NCBI GenBank assembly: GCA_964567085.1
Contig: CAZMKU010000002.1
Coordinates: 1-57,108 of the forward strand
Reading direction: 5' to 3'
Length of the DNA: 57,108 nt
From: an uncultured Clostridium sp.
Lineage (GTDB): Bacteria; Bacillota; Clostridia; Oscillospirales; CAG-272
The position numbers and the translations under genes are program-made. The notes under the pieces were generated by a model. The model was given only the letters and a program-made list of their open reading frames with translations. It was not told where the DNA came from and searched no databases. This document shows positions 48,844 through 55,046 of the stretch, in pieces (position 1 is the stretch's first letter; each line of letters opens with the position of its first letter).

Positions 48844-51573
48844 CTATTTATAATTACAAATAAGAGTTGCTCTCGTCAAATAGTCATTCGCTCTCCCGAT
48901 AGAAATCTTATCCCACTCTTTTTGTGTTCCCGTATAATATACCGTTTTAAGGCTTGTGCAATAAACAAACGCATAATCACCTATGCTTGTTACACTTTCG
49001 GGGATAGTTATGCTCTTAAGGCTCGTGCAACCAGAGAACGCATAATCACCGATGCTTGTTACACTATCGGGGATAGTTATACTCTTAAGACTTGTGCAAT
49101 TATAGAATGCCAAAGAGCCTATGCTTGTTACACTTTCGGGGATAGTTATGCTCTCGAGGTGAGAATATCCATAAAATGCTCGTAGCGAAATACTCGTTCC
49201 ACTCGTAATAACAACTTTTTTCAAGTTGCCCGACGGAATATATTGCATTATTTCCGCGGGGCCCGTTATTGATTCGATGTTACAGTACTTAAACGTATCT
49301 GCATCAATACCTTCTGACGACAATATTGTTATCTCGGTCAACCCACAATCATTTATAGCATATTGATATTGGCCTTCAGCCATAGCCTTATAGGCCTCCA
49401 ACATTAAAACCTGCTCCGAAGTAAGACCCGCAGCCAAGGCCTGTTCATATGCACCCTTATAATCCCCTCTCGACGCTAATTCATTGATTGAAGAAATCAC
49501 CTTTTCATAAATGATATCCATAAGGGAAGTGGAATCTTTATAGTCTTTTATTTCCTTGAATAAAGCATACGCCGATGAATACTGTTGATCATCCATCAGC
49601 TCTATAGCTTCATTGTATTTAAACTCCTTGACTCTATCCTCGCTATCCTTATACCCTTCAAGCTCCTCAAAGATAGATATTGCCTCAGCATATTCGCCCG
49701 CATCCATCAGCGCGATCGCGTCATTATATTTATTGTTAGGAATAATAACGGTGTTCAAAACTATAATAAACACAATAGCCGCAAATACAATAGAGGTTGC
49801 AATAATAACGATTTTTTCGTTGAGCTTTGCTTTCCTTGCTCGCTCTAATTTACGTAGTCTTTCCTTCTCATTTAATTCATCTATCTTTTGCTTGCAATAA
49901 GTAATTAACTCATCGGCGTTTTTATATCCACTAATAGAGGTAAGCAATTTAATAACTTCATAGTAAGAATTAACAGAATTACCGGCGTTCCTTATCTTGC
50001 TTTGAGCCGATGACAAGAAAGCTTCTTTTCTTGCGATTTCGGCTTTTTCAAGGCATTCTTCTACAAGCTCTGCGGAATTCTTGTAGATCAAAATGCGCTG
50101 AAATACAGTAGCCGCCGCCTTGTATGCCGCTTCGCTGTTTGCTATGCTCATTTGTTCCATTGCCGTACTGTATACGCCTTCAAGCTGTGCTTGCTTTGCC
50201 TTCCCAATGCACTCTTCTCTCTTCTCTTTAGCGTCTTTATAATCAATGATAGAGCAAAACTCATCCGCAGCGGCTTTAAAATCAGCCTCCGTCATTGCCG
50301 TATTCATTTTACGGATAGCGACATCATATATAGCATCAAAATTTCTTGTAATTATATAATCTACATATCCACTAAGAGTATTTCTTAATTTCTCATCGCC
50401 AAATCTCATAGCCTTTTGATAATTATTTCTCTTATCAAACGGCTCTCCGCAATCCTTTAATCCATCTTGATTTCGAACGCGCAGCTCCGCCATCAGTTTT
50501 CCGAGATAGGCTTCAGCATTTTCAGGATCCTGATCGAGAACCTTTTCACAATATTCATTGGCAGAATTCCAATCGCCGTCCTCTAAAAACATAAAGACAC
50601 GCTTCAAGAGGGGTGAGACGTTGGCATTCATACTTGAAACAACGGTTTCTTTTACAACGGTAGCAGGCTTAGGTTCATCCTTTTTAACAACTTTCTTTAT
50701 GCCGCGAACGAGGTCATTGATAAAGCCAATCTTTGCCATGTCCTGCGCCTGAAGGTGCGCAAACTCCTCAGGAAGCTCATAAGCATCCATATCACGATAG
50801 CAAGGGATAAGAAGCTTGGAACGATCCTTTTTAATAATCTTCAAGTATCTCGACCACTCGTTCTTTACCCAAACGGCGTTAAAATATTCAGGTCTGGTTC
50901 CAATCGTAAGCATAACCTTTGCAGAATTGAGCGCCGCAAAGATGATAGGCTCGTATGCCGAACCAAGCTTACCCTCAAGAGTTATTGCGGCATAGAATAC
51001 CTTAAATCCCTCCTGCGTAAGCTGATAATAAATATCGTTTGCAATTACGCTGTCCTGCGTCCTTCTTCCGTCAGAATCGGTCTCCTTGTAGCAAATAAAT
51101 ACGTCGTATGCCTCTTCTTTCTGCGCAAGCGCAAGTATCTCCTTCTGTATTCTGTCAATTTCCTTTGCTTGTTCTTCGTAGATAGCACGCTGAGAGAGGT
51201 CTGCATTTTCAATTGCAGACTTATAGTCATCATCAGCTATGATAGAGTCGTAAGATGCTCTGTGACAAGTGGGAATTTTCTTGAACGTAGCGGGATCGTC
51301 AACGTACTCAATACCGTACTTGCAGAGAATAAGACCCCAATATGCCTCGGACTGGGTTGTATCTGCCTGAATTATCTTCTCATAGAGCTTTTCTGCTTTG
51401 TCAAACTCGCTTTTGATACGCAGAGTGTTGGCTCTGTTAAACAAATTCTGAAGATTTTCATCAATAGCCTTCGGCACGGTCTGCTTCGTGCCGCAATAAT
51501 CACATTCCGCAATTGAAACTCCCTCGGCTATTTCGAGGTCTCCACCACACATTTTACATTTAAAAAGTGCCAT
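48844..51573 (-). CDS. 909-aa multidomain protein: N-terminal zinc ribbon, TIR domain, TPR repeats, single TM helix, TPR-like region, BspA-type leucine-rich repeats
   Basis: Zinc ribbon: CKMCGG...CDYCG. TIR-like block (aa ~156-285): YDVFICYKETDSDG...VFYAAITLEGKLGSAYEPIIFAALNSAKVMLTIGT...AVWVKNEWSRYL. TM helix IVIIATSIVFAAIVFIIVLNTVII (nt 49741-49812) is preceded by RLRKLERARKAKLNEK. The C-terminus carries three 23-aa repeats, SITIPxSVTSIGxxAFxxCTSLK. Confidence 0.8.
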   Translation of the reverse strand: MALFKCKMCGGDLEIAEGVSIAECDYCGTKQTVPKAIDENLQNLFNRANTLRIKSEFDKAEKLYEKIIQADTTQSEAYWGLILCKYGIEYVDDPATFKKIPTCHRASYDSIIADDDYKSAIENADLSQRAIYEEQAKEIDRIQKEILALAQKEEAYDVFICYKETDSDGRRTQDSVIANDIYYQLTQEGFKVFYAAITLEGKLGSAYEPIIFAALNSAKVMLTIGTRPEYFNAVWVKNEWSRYLKIIKKDRSKLLIPCYRDMDAYELPEEFAHLQAQDMAKIGFINDLVRGIKKVVKKDEPKPATVVKETVVSSMNANVSPLLKRVFMFLEDGDWNSANEYCEKVLDQDPENAEAYLGKLMAELRVRNQDGLKDCGEPFDKRNNYQKAMRFGDEKLRNTLSGYVDYIITRNFDAIYDVAIRKMNTAMTEADFKAAADEFCSIIDYKDAKEKREECIGKAKQAQLEGVYSTAMEQMSIANSEAAYKAAATVFQRILIYKNSAELVEECLEKAEIARKEAFLSSAQSKIRNAGNSVNSYYEVIKLLTSISGYKNADELITYCKQKIDELNEKERLRKLERARKAKLNEKIVIIATSIVFAAIVFIIVLNTVIIPNNKYNDAIALMDAGEYAEAISIFEELEGYKDSEDRVKEFKYNEAIELMDDQQYSSAYALFKEIKDYKDSTSLMDIIYEKVISSINELASRGDYKGAYEQALAAGLTSEQVLMLEAYKAMAEGQYQYAINDCGLTEITILSSEGIDADTFKYCNIESITGPAEIMQYIPSGNLKKVVITSGTSISLRAFYGYSHLESITIPESVTSIGSLAFYNCTSLKSITIPDSVTSIGDYAFSGCTSLKSITIPESVTSIGDYAFVYCTSLKTVYYTGTQKEWDKISIGRANDYLTRATLICNYK
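48946..49152 (-). repeat. Three tandem 69-nt coding repeats (23-aa LRR units); a degenerate fourth unit extends to about 49215
   Basis: DNA-level near-identity is visible, with ...ATGCTTGTTACACTTTCGGGGATAGTTATGCTCTTAAGGCT... repeated at 69-nt phase. The units encode SITIPESVTSIGSLAFYNCTSLK, SITIPDSVTSIGDYAFSGCTSLK and SITIPESVTSIGDYAFVYCTSLK. Confidence 0.85.
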
Positions 51574-51589
51574 TATTATTGCCCTTCTA

Positions 51590-52285
51590 TTACTTCAAAA
51601 GTTTACATTTTTTATCTCTATCTCCAACCAAGATAACAATCTCATTGGCGATTGTAGCAATATCATCTGTTTCATTCGCTACGGCATCGGCGAGCTTTGC
51701 GAACGTAACGGTAATCTGACCTTCGACAGAAGCGAGCGCTTCGCTGCTCATTGGATCCGAATAACGAATTGCCTCATAGACCTTTTTCGTTGCCGCCTTT
51801 GCTTCGTCGCTCTTGGCTCTTGACATAAGTGTTTCAGCGTCAACGGTCAAGGATTTAATGAAGAAGGTCTGCGCCTTCACTTTTGCATCAACACGCTCGA
51901 TCTCGTCAATAGCGGCAGTTGCCTTGACAACCGAAAGAACGTTAGCCACGAGAACGATAGCGCAAACGATTATGCCAACCCAATATGGAAGAGCGGAGAT
52001 GAGCATACAAAGTCCGCCAACGATAAAGGAAGCGATAAGTCCGATATAACTCGTTCTGATTAAAGAAATATTATAGAACAGCTTCTTTGCGCTATCAGCT
52101 TTAAACGCTATAAAAGAACACGCAAGCTGACCTACGAACATAACAGTGATAAACACGTATCCGATCCAAAAGGACGGTGTGTATTTTTCCTGTCCCGACC
52201 AACCGACGGATACAAATGCGATCACGTTAAAGAGAGCAAGAAGCACCGTCCAAGCTATCGCATATAAACCGAATCTCTTTTTCAT
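51590..52285 (-). CDS. Membrane protein of unknown function (4 TM helices plus a ~100-aa helical C-terminal domain)
   Basis: 231 aa with four clear hydrophobic helices, then an Ala/Lys/Glu-rich soluble tail. A strong RBS (TAGGAGGA) precedes it. Gaps of 15 and 16 nt separate it from the flanking genes, so it is probably co-transcribed with them. Confidence 0.7.
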   Translation of the reverse strand: MKKRFGLYAIAWTVLLALFNVIAFVSVGWSGQEKYTPSFWIGYVFITVMFVGQLACSFIAFKADSAKKLFYNISLIRTSYIGLIASFIVGGLCMLISALPYWVGIIVCAIVLVANVLSVVKATAAIDEIERVDAKVKAQTFFIKSLTVDAETLMSRAKSDEAKAATKKVYEAIRYSDPMSSEALASVEGQITVTFAKLADAVANETDDIATIANEIVILVGDRDKKCKLLK

Positions 52286-52300
52286 TTTATCGTCCTCCTA

Positions 52301-53677
52301 TCAAAGCTTTTCGCCGCATTCAAGGCAGAATTTTGAGCCTGCGGGAATATCCGCGCCGCACTTCGGACAGCTTGTAGCAAACTTATGTCCGCACTCGGGA
52401 CAGAACTTGCCCTTTGCAACCGTCTTGCCGCATTCGGGGCAAACGACGCTGTCTGCGGAAACGACCTTCTCGCCGCACTCAAGACAGAACTTCGCATTTT
52501 GAGGAAGTGTTGCGCCGCACTTCGCGCATTTTGCTTCTACTTCGGTGCTTATGGGCGCGCCAAATCCCTTCATCATACCGCCAAGCTGTGGAGCAACTAC
52601 ACCTGCAGCCGCCATTCCAACGCCAAGCCCTATCATATCCCCTGCAACGCTGCCGCCGCCCGTTATCGTCATATTGCCAAGACCCTCTGCATATGCCTTC
52701 TGAACCTCTGCCTGCATAACGTCCTTTTCGGTATAGCCCTTAGCCCGCATAACCTCGGCTTCCGCAAAACCAGCCATTTTTGCGGCCTGTGCCTCGGTCT
52801 GCGCCTTGATAAGCTCGCGCTCTGCCTCACGCTTTGCGACCTCGGTCTCGGTCGTTTGTCTTTCCATCTCGATCTTTCTGCGAGCCGCCGTAACCTCAGC
52901 CTCGGCATCCGCCTGTGCGGATTTAACAAGAGCCTCTGCCTGAATCATTCTCGTTTGGAAGGAAACCGTGTGCAGCTCCTTCATTCTTCTGAAATTGGGA
53001 TCGTTTTCGGGCAAAGAGATATTTGTTATGTAAAACTCGGGTATTGTTAATCCGTATTCCTCAAAACCGCCCACAATACTCTTCCGCATAATCTCGGAAA
53101 GCGTCTCAAGGCTCTCGTCAATTTCGAGAATATTTATATTATTGGCTTTGATTGCATTTGTCAAGTGGGATTTTACCGCCGTTGAAACAAGAGGACGGAA
53201 TGCGCTTTGAATAGACTTTGTAAAGCCTACGCCATTTTCACCCCAAGCAATACCTCGCATAGTACCAACCAGCTTCAAAAGAAGCTTACGGGAATCCGCT
53301 ACAGCAAGATTCATCTCGCCGCAAGCGCCGATCTCCAATGGAATGCCAAGATTGGGATCGAGAAATCTAACCTTGGAGTCCGTTCCCCATTTCACCGCCA
53401 TCTGCACGGTTTTGTTAATGAAATAGACCTCACAATGAAAGGGGGTCTCTCCACCCGTGGCCTTGTTTATCATCTTACCAAGCTTCGGGATGTTTTGCGT
53501 TTCAAGCGTGTAACGGCCTGCCCCAAACAAATCAAGAGCCTCTCCGTTCATAAAGAAAATCGCCTCTTGTGACTCGTGAACGATAAGCTGTGTAGTCGTG
53601 TTAAAATCCTCGCAAGGATGCTTCCAGATAAACGTGCTGTTGTCGCCCTCGTACTTAATAATGTCAGATATTGCCAT
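52301..53677 (-). CDS. SPFH/Band-7 domain protein of the COG4260 (YdjI-like) type with three C-terminal zinc ribbons
   Basis: The ATG at 53677 (MAISDIIKYEG...) is preceded by GGGAGGA. LIVHESQEAIFFMNGEALDLFGAGRYTLETQNIPKL is the characteristic YdjI-family N-terminus. An Ala/Glu-rich coiled coil follows, then CAKCGATLPQNAKFCLECG, CPECGKTVAKGKFCPECG and CPKCGADIPAGSKFCLECG. The upstream 68 codons in the ORF track are non-coding promoter sequence. Confidence 0.88.
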   Translation of the reverse strand: MAISDIIKYEGDNSTFIWKHPCEDFNTTTQLIVHESQEAIFFMNGEALDLFGAGRYTLETQNIPKLGKMINKATGGETPFHCEVYFINKTVQMAVKWGTDSKVRFLDPNLGIPLEIGACGEMNLAVADSRKLLLKLVGTMRGIAWGENGVGFTKSIQSAFRPLVSTAVKSHLTNAIKANNINILEIDESLETLSEIMRKSIVGGFEEYGLTIPEFYITNISLPENDPNFRRMKELHTVSFQTRMIQAEALVKSAQADAEAEVTAARRKIEMERQTTETEVAKREAERELIKAQTEAQAAKMAGFAEAEVMRAKGYTEKDVMQAEVQKAYAEGLGNMTITGGGSVAGDMIGLGVGMAAAGVVAPQLGGMMKGFGAPISTEVEAKCAKCGATLPQNAKFCLECGEKVVSADSVVCPECGKTVAKGKFCPECGHKFATSCPKCGADIPAGSKFCLECGEKL

Positions 53678-53718
53678 AATTCCTCCCATTTTTCTACATA
53701 AATATCCAAAATTCTTAT

Positions 53719-53777
53719 CTTTAACACAATTATATACTAAAAATATGTTAAAGTCAAGATAAATTCTTAACTTTAAC
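53719..53777. promoter_or_regulatory. Inverted repeat plus a third half-site in the divergent XRE/SPFH promoter region (candidate operator)
   Basis: CTTTAACA (53719-53726), 19 nt, TGTTAAAG (53746-53753), a perfect 8-bp inverted repeat. A further CTTTAAC lies at 53771-53777. All sit within the 120-nt gap between the two divergent start codons. Confidence 0.5.
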
Positions 53778-53797
53778 GATTTTAGGAGGATATAATT

Positions 53798-54040
53798 GTG
53801 AAGATTTACGACTACAACGGCAAGAAAAACATTTGTGGCGACAGAATTCACGAGGCGCGTTGCCGTCACAGGCTCACGCAAAGCGACCTTGCGGCAAAGC
53901 TTCAGGTTGCGGGCATCATTATAGAGCGCGACAGCATATCCCGTATCGAAATCGGCACGAGATTCGTGGCGGACTACGAGCTTCGCGAGCTCGCAAACAT
54001 TCTCGGCGTTACAACCAACTGGCTTTTAGGCTTGGAATAG
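53798..54040 (+). CDS. XRE-family helix-turn-helix transcriptional regulator (80 aa)
   Basis: GTG start with an AGGAGGA RBS. The HTH_3 pattern reads GDRIHEARCRHRLTQSDLAAKLQVAGIIIERDSISRIEIGTR...LRELANILGVTTNWLLG. Confidence 0.88.
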   Translation: MKIYDYNGKKNICGDRIHEARCRHRLTQSDLAAKLQVAGIIIERDSISRIEIGTRFVADYELRELANILGVTTNWLLGLE

Positions 54041-54056
54041 ATCAGCGTATCAATAC

Positions 54057-54084
54057 AAAAAGCAGGCTCACGCCTGCTTTTCTT
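54057..54084. terminator. Bidirectional intrinsic terminator
   Basis: AAAA-AGCAGGC-TCAC-GCCTGCT-TTTC lies between the convergent XRE gene and the 54090-55046 gene. Confidence 0.75.
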
Positions 54085-54089
54085 GATTT

Positions 54090-55046
54090 TCACTCATGAA
54101 TCTGTCTGTTTACGTACGTACATTCGCCGACGGCTTTATACATTGATCTTTCATTATTATTAAACGTGAGTCTGATGCCCATACCACTCGTATAATAATA
54201 AATTTCCTCAATCGCAGTATAAAAATCCTTCTTCGCCGCATCTGCGTCAACGTCAAGCTCATCGGCATTTTCGGCGCACGGCACGCTCGACGCGTCAAGG
54301 GATATAAAGTCACAGGTCTGAAGAATAATTTGCGGCAAATACGATTCGGGATCGCTCACAACAACGTCCTCATAGTCAAGCTCGATACCGATCCTGCAGC
54401 TTCCCACGCCGCTCTTTATATCCGACAAAAACACAAGCACCTCACGAAGATTTTCCTCCGTCACGTCCACGCCCAAAAGCAGAATTTCATCCACTCCCGC
54501 CGCAGCCGCCTCGTGAATCAGCCTGATCTCATACTCCCTTTTCACCTCGGCGATATTGCTCTCGTCAGCGAACGAGCCGACGTACATATAACCGCAAATG
54601 TAACCGCCATACTTATGAATGCTCTGCGCCTCATCCGACAAATCTACACTCTTGTACACACTATCCCAGCCTACCGCCTGCGCGATCTCGGAATTGTAAT
54701 AAAGCGTGCCCTCGGCATCGCGAAGCATAATTGAAAGGTCGGTAATATCCTGACTTAACAAATTGCCGAGCGAATCGGAGAAACGGTAGGTCTGCGCGTT
54801 TACGGGACGCATATCGCCCGACGGCTTGGCTATCTGAATTTCGGGCTCTATATATTCAAACTCCGTGGGTTTCTCGTATTTTTCCGCCTCGGATTTAAGC
54901 TTCAGCCCGACGAGAGTCGCGGCGAGAATTACAAGTCCGATACAGAGCGCCGCAATTAAGCAAATTCCGAGAATTACGGGGATTTTTTTGGAGCGACGGA
55001 TACTTTTCGAGCTTCGTCTGCGATACCGTCTCGTATATTTCGGCAT
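54090..55046 (-). CDS. Membrane-anchored hypothetical protein (basic N-tail, one TM, ~250-aa extracytoplasmic domain)
   Basis: 318 aa. MPKYTRRYRRRSSKSIRRSKK is followed by the TM segment IPVILGICLIAALCIGLVILAATLV. The C-terminal domain might be a TIM-barrel or GHL-like fold (VDEILLLGVDV...), but I cannot assign a family. Confidence 0.55.
   Translation of the reverse strand: MPKYTRRYRRRSSKSIRRSKKIPVILGICLIAALCIGLVILAATLVGLKLKSEAEKYEKPTEFEYIEPEIQIAKPSGDMRPVNAQTYRFSDSLGNLLSQDITDLSIMLRDAEGTLYYNSEIAQAVGWDSVYKSVDLSDEAQSIHKYGGYICGYMYVGSFADESNIAEVKREYEIRLIHEAAAAGVDEILLLGVDVTEENLREVLVFLSDIKSGVGSCRIGIELDYEDVVVSDPESYLPQIILQTCDFISLDASSVPCAENADELDVDADAAKKDFYTAIEEIYYYTSGMGIRLTFNNNERSMYKAVGECTYVNRQIHE

Follow-up and report, generated by a model that had tools for sequence, protein, structure and literature searches.

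An SPFH, four-helix membrane protein and TIR receptor operon of gut Clostridia, a candidate surface-sensing conflict module

Results

A compact operon faces an XRE-type regulator gene

The window analyzed here is a 57,108-nt stretch of DNA from an uncultured Clostridium sp. (GTDB lineage Bacillota; Clostridia; Oscillospirales; CAG-272), namely positions 1 to 57,108 of the forward strand of contig CAZMKU010000002.1 in NCBI GenBank assembly GCA_964567085.1. Our subject is a minus-strand operon of three genes in this window, which encode an SPFH-domain protein, a protein with four transmembrane (TM) helices (the 4-TM protein) and a large TIR-domain protein, together with a small XRE-type regulator gene that points away from them (Table 1). 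A preliminary description made from the sequence had put forward all four genes as one module. Their open reading frames (ORFs), coordinates and operon gaps of 15 and 16 nt were as described there when we checked the ORFs, and ribosome-binding sites (AGGAGG and GAAGGG) lie inside the gaps. Pfam likewise found every domain that had been predicted (TIR_2, SPFH Band_7_1 with zinc ribbons, LRR_5 and HTH_3), and hydropathy and AlphaFold2 both agreed with a 4-TM protein made of four hydrophobic helices and a helical tail.

The TIR protein is a predicted single-pass receptor

From N- to C-terminus, the TIR protein consists of a zinc ribbon, a helical/beta-hairpin module, the TIR domain, TPR-like repeats, a TM helix, juxtamembrane helical repeats and an LRR_5 domain. 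Pfam assigned TIR_2 (2.4e-9, aa 158–280), LRR_5 (5.1e-34, aa 783–885) and TPR_19. In the AlphaFold2 model (pLDDT 79.7), the zinc ribbon is followed by a short helical module, a beta-hairpin (GIEYVDD), a long helix, the TIR fold, a disordered linker and the TPR-like repeats. Foldseek matched the TIR domain with probability 1.0 to the TIR domains of SARM1, plant NLR, AbTir, SPARTA and MyD88 proteins, and a sequence search of the PDB returned a TLR15/TLR2 TIR domain as its sole match (E 0.003). By profile match and by model comparison, the proposed TIR fold is thus present in the window protein.

The WxxxE glutamate of helix alpha-C is the catalytic residue in TIR NADases (NAD+-cleaving enzymes). 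In the window protein this position is taken by E239, which aligns with the Glu of the 'WCxYE' motif in the alpha-C helix of Toll-like receptors (TLRs). Alignments of 21 and 30 homologues showed W235 and E239 to be invariant, together with C9, C24 and C27 of the zinc ribbon (C6 nearly so); E239, the putative catalytic residue, had already been singled out in the preliminary description. Conservation is concentrated at this end of the protein: the first ~360 aa are 61–89% identical across families, with long invariant runs. Searches with the N-terminal module (aa 1–155, E<=1e-30) collected 2507 clusters at 50% identity, the match lying always at residues 1–154, and more than 8000 homologues of the TIR protein were found, against 3371 of the 4-TM protein.

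Seven Lys or Arg residues lie within the 15 aa before the TM helix and one after it, which by the positive-inside rule places the N-terminus inside and the C-terminus outside. The protein is therefore predicted to be single-pass, with its ribbon, helical module, TIR domain and TPR-like repeats in the cytoplasm and its variable domain outside the cell. A TM helix of this kind is present in 70 of the 88 TIR-family members in the loci surveyed below, their ectodomains having a median length of 291 aa. The remaining 18 ORFs have no TM helix (examples in Table 1). These TM-less copies often lie directly upstream of a long SPFH variant (~620–670 aa), whose 4-TM partner is 25–30% identical to that of the window; the arrangement suggests a second module subtype consisting of soluble TIR, long SPFH, 4-TM and membrane TIR proteins.

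The SPFH protein lacks a membrane anchor and the 4-TM protein has no named relative

The SPFH protein carries, in this order, a Band_7_1 domain, a coiled-coil, a Gly-rich hydrophobic linker and three zinc ribbons. Its hydropathy profile contains no strong TM helix and hence no membrane anchor. More than 8000 homologues were found, the close ones all of the same architecture; a sequence search of the PDB gave no match.

For the 4-TM protein we found no relative in Pfam, NCBIfam or the PDB, and its 3371 homologues are all unnamed. The four hydrophobic helices are followed by a cytoplasmic helical tail or bundle that AlphaFold2 modeled with pLDDT 84–92, and the alignment shows a conserved R.KKCKLLK motif at the C-terminus. 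Comparison of the model with the PDB by Foldseek returned nothing meaningful (best E 0.11, to TRPV and designed helical proteins), and PADLOC gave only a marginal match to a '2TM effector' (1.6e-3). In one variant module (L055), the 4-TM protein bears a fused LRR-like ectodomain at its N-terminus (450 aa, no Pfam match), and the place of the TIR receptor is taken by a 240-aa protein that has a zinc ribbon and TM segments.

The three genes form a conserved unit in gut and rumen Clostridia

We surveyed TIR-family relatives in one genome per GTDB species with the alignment of 21 homologues. At least 570 relatives were recovered and 79 loci retained, and SPFH and 4-TM partners were then located in these loci by tblastn with the window proteins. 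Both partners were present in 48 of the 79 species-level loci, always on the TIR strand and always with SPFH before 4-TM. In 28 loci the 4-TM gene is followed by the TIR gene at a distance of under 150 nt; the TIR gene lies further downstream in 12 and is found upstream only in 8. Five more loci hold a partial pair (one partner found, often at a contig edge), and 26 have neither partner, 7 of these having no upstream flank. At least one metagenome-assembled genome, JAFTHJ01, has an orphan TIR locus (L008) in addition to a full module (L023). In a reverse survey, we searched metagenome contigs with an alignment of the 4-TM protein; where the flank was present, the SPFH gene lay upstream in 31/31 loci and the TIR gene downstream in 30/30, many of the contigs being near-duplicates of one human-gut lineage. 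The association drawn in the preliminary description between the three operon genes thus holds in other genomes, far beyond chance. Identity-to-window values of the three proteins were not significantly correlated, in a design that is uninformative on this point.

The fourth gene fared differently. The window XRE gene had no tblastn match at E <= 1e-5 in any of 127 loci. Unrelated XRE-like genes lie divergently upstream in two loci (L001 and L029), and elsewhere the regulator position holds a ribbon-helix-helix (RHH, CopG) gene or nothing. When we clustered the ORFs of the 79 loci, no further family was conserved apart from this RHH gene of ~66 aa, found in 13 loci, so the core comprises the three genes plus a variable regulator position. 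By these comparisons the conserved unit is SPFH, 4-TM and TIR, the XRE gene is genome-specific, and the four-gene unit first proposed was rejected on that account while its three-gene part stood.

Two to five TIR paralogues occur in 21 of the 79 loci. The operon is widespread in gut and rumen Clostridia and apparently undescribed, our literature searches having found no description of an SPFH/TIR module. Cultured bacteria carry it too, namely Ruminococcus sp. FC2018 (L045) and Anaerotignum sp. MSJ-24 (L038). Modules 60–80% identical to those of Clostridia also occur in bins labeled Bacteroidota, namely L029 (Sodaliphilus sp.), L077 (Alistipes sp.) and P0005, P0194 and P0315 ('Bacteroidales bacterium'), through either binning error or inter-phylum transfer.

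Ectodomains vary and some are targets of diversity-generating retroelements

Among the 70 TM-bearing members, the ectodomain is most commonly DUF6273 (39 members), followed by RCC1-like propellers (15), LRR_5 (3), RHS (2) and FNIP (2); the LRR_5 ectodomain of the window is a minority variant. DUF6273 has been described as a C-lectin-like domain that retroelements target in the receptor-binding proteins of gut phages (PMC10743442; bioRxiv 10.1101/2024.10.15.618418). In four loci (L010, L014, L019 and L053) a bAvd-like gene comes after the TIR gene, and in L010, L014 and L019 a reverse transcriptase gene comes next. The layout of the L014 cassette is given in Table 1: a 127-nt variable repeat occupies the extreme 3' end of the TIR gene, and its template copy lies between the bAvd-like gene and the reverse transcriptase gene. 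In this pair, 24 of the 26 core mismatches fall on template adenines, an adenine bias that is the hallmark of a diversity-generating retroelement. These cassettes stand directly downstream of TIR-family genes, and their target is the C-terminal DUF6273 ectodomain. In L019 and L053 the targeted TIR gene belongs to a full SPFH, 4-TM, TIR module. Retroelement targeting of a DUF6273 domain identifies the ectodomain as a surface that binds ligands and is subject to diversifying pressure. The copy in the window was found to have neither a reverse transcriptase gene nor an Avd-like gene.

Effector-type genes are intercalated in the operon

About a quarter of the modules hold an extra gene inside the operon, between 4-TM and TIR or between TIR and SPFH. 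The intercalated genes include HEPN-type genes (six loci), DUF2971 genes (four), small TIR genes (two) and SIR2_2 genes (two; Table 1). We also scanned 150 neighboring ORFs with PADLOC and Pfam. Integrases and resolvases were frequent among the outer neighbors, which further included HTH regulators, Schlafen/AlbA_2 and SoFic genes and PADLOC candidate-system (PDC) genes, and ORF clustering showed that the flanks differ between the 79 loci. The preliminary description had placed the cassette in a defence-island setting. This was not cleanly borne out for its relatives, whose surroundings are a mixture of mobile-element, defence-type and metabolic genes; because the neighbors are mixed and the scan had no background control, we claim no defence-island enrichment. 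One full module lies on a viral contig (L126, IMG/VR UViG_3300031555_010668) beside a GH25 lysozyme-like gene and a resolvase gene, and may represent a prophage edge or another mobile element.

Control region and base composition of the window cassette

We place the SPFH start at the ATG at 53677, which is preceded by a GGGAGG ribosome-binding site; the reading frame is open to 53881. The XRE gene starts with GTG, 7 nt after an AGGAGG ribosome-binding site. Public gene calls differ in two places: that of the SPFH protein (P0241, 462 aa) begins 4 codons upstream (53678–53689) of the ATG backed by a ribosome-binding site, and that of the TIR protein (P0001, 902 aa) begins at M8, dropping 51553–51573 and with it the first Cys of the ribbon.

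An operator-like repeat had been noticed, and the palindrome found between the divergent genes overlaps the −35 element of the operon promoter. With a third half-site near by, it is a plausible XRE operator, and the XRE protein is probably a repressor of the three-gene operon. Beyond the XRE gene, a 318-aa ORF with an N-terminal TM segment and no Pfam family converges on it at a strong terminator (Table 1).

The skewed composition reported for the largest gene was also recovered. Its G+C content at third codon positions (GC3) is 0.36–0.45 overall. It falls from 0.45 in the N-terminal module, which is conserved, to 0.36 in the middle and stands at 0.40 in the ectodomain part, a mosaic that is consistent with domain shuffling or recent acquisition. 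The 4-TM and SPFH genes have GC3 values of 0.46 and 0.54, against 0.56–0.65 in the flanking dgt-like, dnaG and other genes. Since the cassette lies below its housekeeping flanks, its composition suggests horizontal acquisition.

Table 1. Positions of the features of the window cassette and of related loci
Feature	Locus	Position	Strand	Details
TIR protein gene	Window	48844-51573	-	909 aa; ORF and Pfam
N-terminal zinc ribbon of TIR protein	Window	51478-51573	-	C6, C9, C24, C27; MALFKCKMCGG...CDYCG
TIR domain	Window	50689-51102	-	aa 158-295; Pfam TIR_2 and Foldseek
E239 codon	Window	50857-50859	-	W235xxxE239 (WVKNEW) motif; translation check
Single TM helix	Window	49741-49812	-	about aa 588-611; Kyte-Doolittle peak 3.24
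BspA-type LRR_5 ectodomain	Window	48919-49227	-	aa 783-885; Pfam
4-TM protein gene	Window	51590-52285	-	231 aa; ORF; no Pfam family
SPFH protein gene	Window	52301-53677	-	458 aa; ORF and Pfam
SPFH Band_7_1 domain	Window	53003-53602	-	aa 26-225; Pfam 1.3e-37
Three CxxC...CxxC zinc ribbons of SPFH protein	Window	52304-52528	-	DZR/Zn_Ribbon matches and translation
XRE-type regulator gene	Window	53798-54040	+	80 aa; ORF; Pfam HTH_31/HTH_3
Divergent promoter/operator region	Window	53678-53797		120 nt between SPFH and XRE genes
Promoter TTGACT-17-TATAAT	Window	53757..53729	-	near-consensus; reads into the three-gene operon
Palindrome GTTAAAGTCAAGA/TCTTAACTTTAAC	Window	53747-53777		13-nt arms; overlaps operon promoter -35
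Third operator half-site (candidate)	Window	53713-53725		in divergent region
17-nt direct repeat	Window	copies at 53709 and 53761		in divergent region
Terminator after XRE gene	Window	54058-54081		10-bp stem then T run; bidirectional-looking
Neighboring ORF	Window	54090-55046	-	318 aa
Variable repeat	L014	6520-6646
bAvd-like gene	L014	6787-7185
Template repeat	L014	7213-7339
Reverse transcriptase gene	L014	7529-8572
Repeat pair	L010	2676-2798/3383-3505		83-84% identity (range shared with L053)
Repeat pair	L053	12422-12540/13129-13247		83-84% identity (range shared with L010)
Intercalated HEPN-type gene	L012	7659-8267
Intercalated HEPN-type gene	L035	6544-7020
Intercalated HEPN-type gene	L040	8904-9593
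Intercalated HEPN-type gene	L053	9408-10001
Intercalated HEPN-type gene	L056	1999-2589
Intercalated HEPN-type gene	L126	9528-9986
Intercalated DUF2971 gene	L007	8418-9086
Intercalated DUF2971 gene	L045	12994-13869
Intercalated DUF2971 gene	L050
Intercalated DUF2971 gene	L072
Intercalated small TIR gene	L047	9515-9967
Intercalated small TIR gene	L067	9552-9977
Intercalated SIR2_2 gene	L030	13065-14024
Intercalated SIR2_2 gene	L032	6500-7372
TM-less TIR-family ORF	L024	2456-4339
TM-less TIR-family ORF	L045	5552-7420
TM-less TIR-family ORF	L009	5867-7900
TM-less TIR-family ORF	L032	4156-6483
4-TM protein with LRR-like ectodomain	L055	11376-12728
Protein in place of TIR receptor	L055	12710-13432		240 aa
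Module on viral contig	L126	3836-6908

Discussion

Resemblance to known systems

What do the three genes resemble? We take YdjI (SamI) of Bacillus subtilis to be a member of PF13421. SamI is soluble and is recruited by the membrane proteins SamG/YdjG and SamH/YdjH, of which SamG begins with a zinc ribbon ('MIISYKCPNC', TF_Zn_Ribbon; PMC8581546), and a 2026 preprint reports that it acts as a brake on the SamGH sensor (bioRxiv 10.64898/2026.02.06.704340). Like the PspA-SamGHI (YdjGHI) system, the window module has an anchorless Band_7_1 protein that contains a low-complexity linker and ends in zinc ribbons; its gene stands beside two membrane-protein genes, one of them encoding an N-terminal zinc ribbon. 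It differs in several features: (i) no PspA domain was found by Pfam in the operon or the adjacent genes, as the preliminary description had remarked; (ii) the gene order is reversed, SPFH coming first; (iii) the zinc-ribbon partner is distinguished by its TIR domain, its TPR-like repeats and an ectodomain that varies; and (iv) the second membrane protein belongs to a 4-TM family without known relatives, in a module that is accessory, multi-paralogous and found in anaerobic gut Clostridia. Other SPFH proteins, in HflK/C-FtsH and QmcA-YbbJ, form cages that enclose and regulate membrane enzymes (bioRxiv 10.64898/2026.02.06.704340). In the window too, the SPFH protein is encoded with membrane proteins that, in the reading proposed below, it would regulate. 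Unlike those cages it belongs to the Band_7_1 subfamily, is unanchored and has neither a protease nor an NfeD partner, and its client would be a TIR receptor. Assignment to an SPFH-NfeD operon was rejected because the 4-TM protein matches neither NfeD nor any other Pfam family.

On the TIR side, the window domain shares its fold with Thoeris ThsB, SPARTA TIR-APAZ and the AbTir NADases (root-mean-square deviation about 3 Å to SPARTA TIRs, TM-score 0.72 to AbTir). As in bacterial TIR immune proteins, the WxxxE Glu is kept, and SIR2, HEPN and extra TIR genes occur in the context of the module's relatives. Unlike in those proteins, the domain is part of a TM receptor whose sensor is predicted to lie outside the cell, and its constant partners are SPFH and 4-TM proteins rather than the ThsA, Argonaute or cyclase of Thoeris, SPARTA and CBASS.

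The predicted outer LRR, single TM helix and cytoplasmic TIR domain recall animal TLRs by analogy. The polarity is opposite, with the TIR domain N-terminal and the ectodomain C-terminal (type II); moreover, the LRR is of the BspA-type LRR_5 class, most relatives have no LRR, and homology is limited to the TIR domain. The window protein is thus an architectural analogue only, and we see no evidence for common descent of the whole receptor with TLRs.

Retroelement-diversified putative antigen sensors have been described in multicellular bacteria, some of the targets carrying TIR domains in STAND or CHAT contexts (PMC10907252). Relatives of our module likewise combine a retroelement-diversified C-lectin-type region (with bAvd-like and reverse transcriptase genes) and a conflict-type effector domain in one protein. 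They differ from those sensors, which are mostly cytoplasmic STAND-NTPase or MoxR-vWA proteins, in that the target is the predicted extracellular domain of a single-pass TIR receptor, and in that the module is tied to SPFH and 4-TM proteins in unicellular gut Clostridia.

A surface-sensing TIR system restrained by an SPFH scaffold

What is the function of the module? The reading that we favor, and which we judge about evenly poised between right and wrong, is that of a surface-sensing TIR conflict or immunity system restrained by an SPFH scaffold. The 4-TM protein would tether an SPFH oligomer to the membrane, and the oligomer would keep one or several TIR receptors inactive, as a brake in the manner of SamI on SamGH. 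An external ligand at the ectodomain, or a membrane disturbance such as that caused by a phage, would free or cluster the receptors. Their TIR domains could then self-associate and turn enzymatically active, cleaving NAD+ or producing a signal, and the outcome would be growth arrest or abortive infection, at times aided by an operon-borne HEPN, SIR2 or TIR effector.

Several lines of evidence suggest this scheme. The brake is modeled on SamI, which has the same layout as the window SPFH protein, needs two membrane partners, one of them ribbon-first, and restrains them. The TIR paralogues in 21 of the 79 loci, and the excess of TIR homologues over 4-TM homologues, argue for one scaffold serving several receptors. 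The conflict flavor comes from the intercalated HEPN, DUF2971, TIR and SIR2 genes, the nearby integrases and resolvases, the differing flanks, the low GC3 and the small XRE or RHH regulators. The preliminary description had hypothesized a path from sensing through TIR NADase activity to abortive infection; the retroelement-targeted ectodomains and the intercalated HEPN, SIR2 and TIR genes would somewhat strengthen that idea.

A number of observations weigh against our reading. The WxxxE Glu is retained also in the TIR domains of animal TLRs, which are not NADases, so that conservation of E239 is no proof of catalysis. The strong conservation of the N-terminal region is unusual for immune proteins, which evolve fast, and might point to a housekeeping interaction. 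In a thick-walled monoderm, an ectodomain of ~300 aa may fall short of the cell surface. Homology to the Sam system is shown for the SPFH protein only, the resemblance of its partners to SamG and SamH being architectural. PADLOC gave no match for the TIR protein (E<=0.1) or the SPFH protein, and hence no validated relative. Among the neighbors of the modules are ordinary metabolic genes. A scan of viral contigs yielded only 2 module loci, and tblastn of the TIR N-terminal module against plasmid and phage collections gave no match. Finally, retroelement-diversified surface proteins can equally serve adhesion.

Which other explanations could account for the module? It may be a complex like SamGHI (YdjGHI) that serves envelope stress or membrane homeostasis; the SPFH protein and its two membrane partners would then sense the condition of the membrane or cell wall, and the TIR domain would provide a regulatory or NAD-linked output for physiology rather than defence. 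The layout of the SPFH protein (Band_7_1, anchorless, low-complexity linker, C-terminal zinc finger) matches SamI, and so does the partner logic of a ribbon-first membrane protein plus a second membrane protein; the very strongly conserved cytoplasmic N-terminal module and the position of the window module among housekeeping genes also fit. Yet PspA is absent from the operon and adjacent genes, and the 4-TM protein has no detectable kin in known families. The unrelated genomic contexts, nearby integrases and deviating GC3 make the module look accessory rather than core. Several receptor paralogues with hypervariable, retroelement-targeted ectodomains are hard to reconcile with simple stress sensing, as are HEPN, SIR2 and TIR genes within the operon, and we consider this explanation unlikely. 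Alternatively, the ectodomains may bind host, dietary or neighbor-cell ligands as part of an adhesion or colonization apparatus, and the TIR, SPFH and 4-TM parts would only cluster or anchor adhesins in membrane microdomains or signal attachment. In many bacteria, the proteins that retroelements target are regarded as adhesins. BspA-type LRR_5, DUF6273, RCC1-like, RHS and FNIP domains are typical binding modules of surface and phage receptor-binding proteins (PMC10743442), and SPFH proteins organize membrane complexes (bioRxiv 10.64898/2026.02.06.704340). However, the cytoplasmic part retains an entire TIR fold, its putative catalytic Glu invariant, and is better conserved than the rest of the protein, which a mere anchor would not call for; Pfam revealed no sortase signal or cell-wall-binding module in the window TIR protein, effector-type HEPN, SIR2 and TIR genes are inserted in the operon, and the operon is under tight predicted XRE or RHH repression. 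We hold an adhesion role to be improbable as well, and marginally more so.

Membership in a named TIR defence system (Thoeris, a CBASS/Pycsar effector, a retron-TIR or a SPARTA-like system) is effectively refuted. It could draw on the Foldseek similarity to SPARTA and AbTir TIRs and on the best NCBIfam match of the TIR protein, to the Thoeris type III protein ThcB4 (E 7.4e-5), but the latter is weak, its 21.8 bits lying tenfold under the cutoff of 220. PADLOC was empty for the TIR and SPFH proteins, as expected from the earlier remark that the gene set fits none of the familiar named defence systems. No ThsA (SIR2 or Macro with SLOG) was found by Pfam in the four genes and their flanks, and tblastn for SIR2_2 was empty in the window; Pfam detected no CBASS or Pycsar nucleotide cyclase (CD-NTase, PycC) in the operon genes or flanks, and the window searches gave no Argonaute and no reverse transcriptase. 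Thoeris, CBASS and Pycsar were thus rejected for missing their required partners, and the conserved SPFH and 4-TM partners are not known from any named system. That unrelated genes merely came to lie side by side is refuted outright, given that order, strand and adjacency are kept in 48 species-level loci and that linkage seen from the 4-TM side was complete (31/31 and 30/30).

Significance

To our knowledge, the known bacterial TIR systems sense infection inside the cell. If functional as proposed, the module described here, which appears to combine TIR-based conflict systems with SPFH-regulated membrane complexes, would represent outside-in TIR signaling in bacteria, and the family counts more than 2500 clusters at 50% identity. 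Animal Toll-like receptors offer an obvious parallel. The poorly understood SPFH proteins of the Band_7_1/SamI class would also gain a second client, one amenable to genetics, and thousands of 4-TM proteins of the dominant gut and rumen Clostridia, now "hypothetical", would gain a role. Since the module occurs in cultured strains, the hypothesis is directly testable. A bolder version of the reading, which we advance tentatively and think rather doubtful, is that gut Clostridia own TLR-style surface immune receptors. In many of them a retroelement would rewrite the ectodomain and so supply a changing repertoire; a single membrane helix would couple the ectodomain to the cytoplasmic TIR enzyme, which an SPFH cage tethered by the 4-TM protein would keep off. 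A phage or foreign cell would be recognized outside the membrane, prior to DNA entry or during it, and the TIR activity would be freed. If true, this bolder reading would define a class of bacterial immunity not seen before, in which sensing is outside-in, the receptor is programmable and a scaffold gates TIR signaling.

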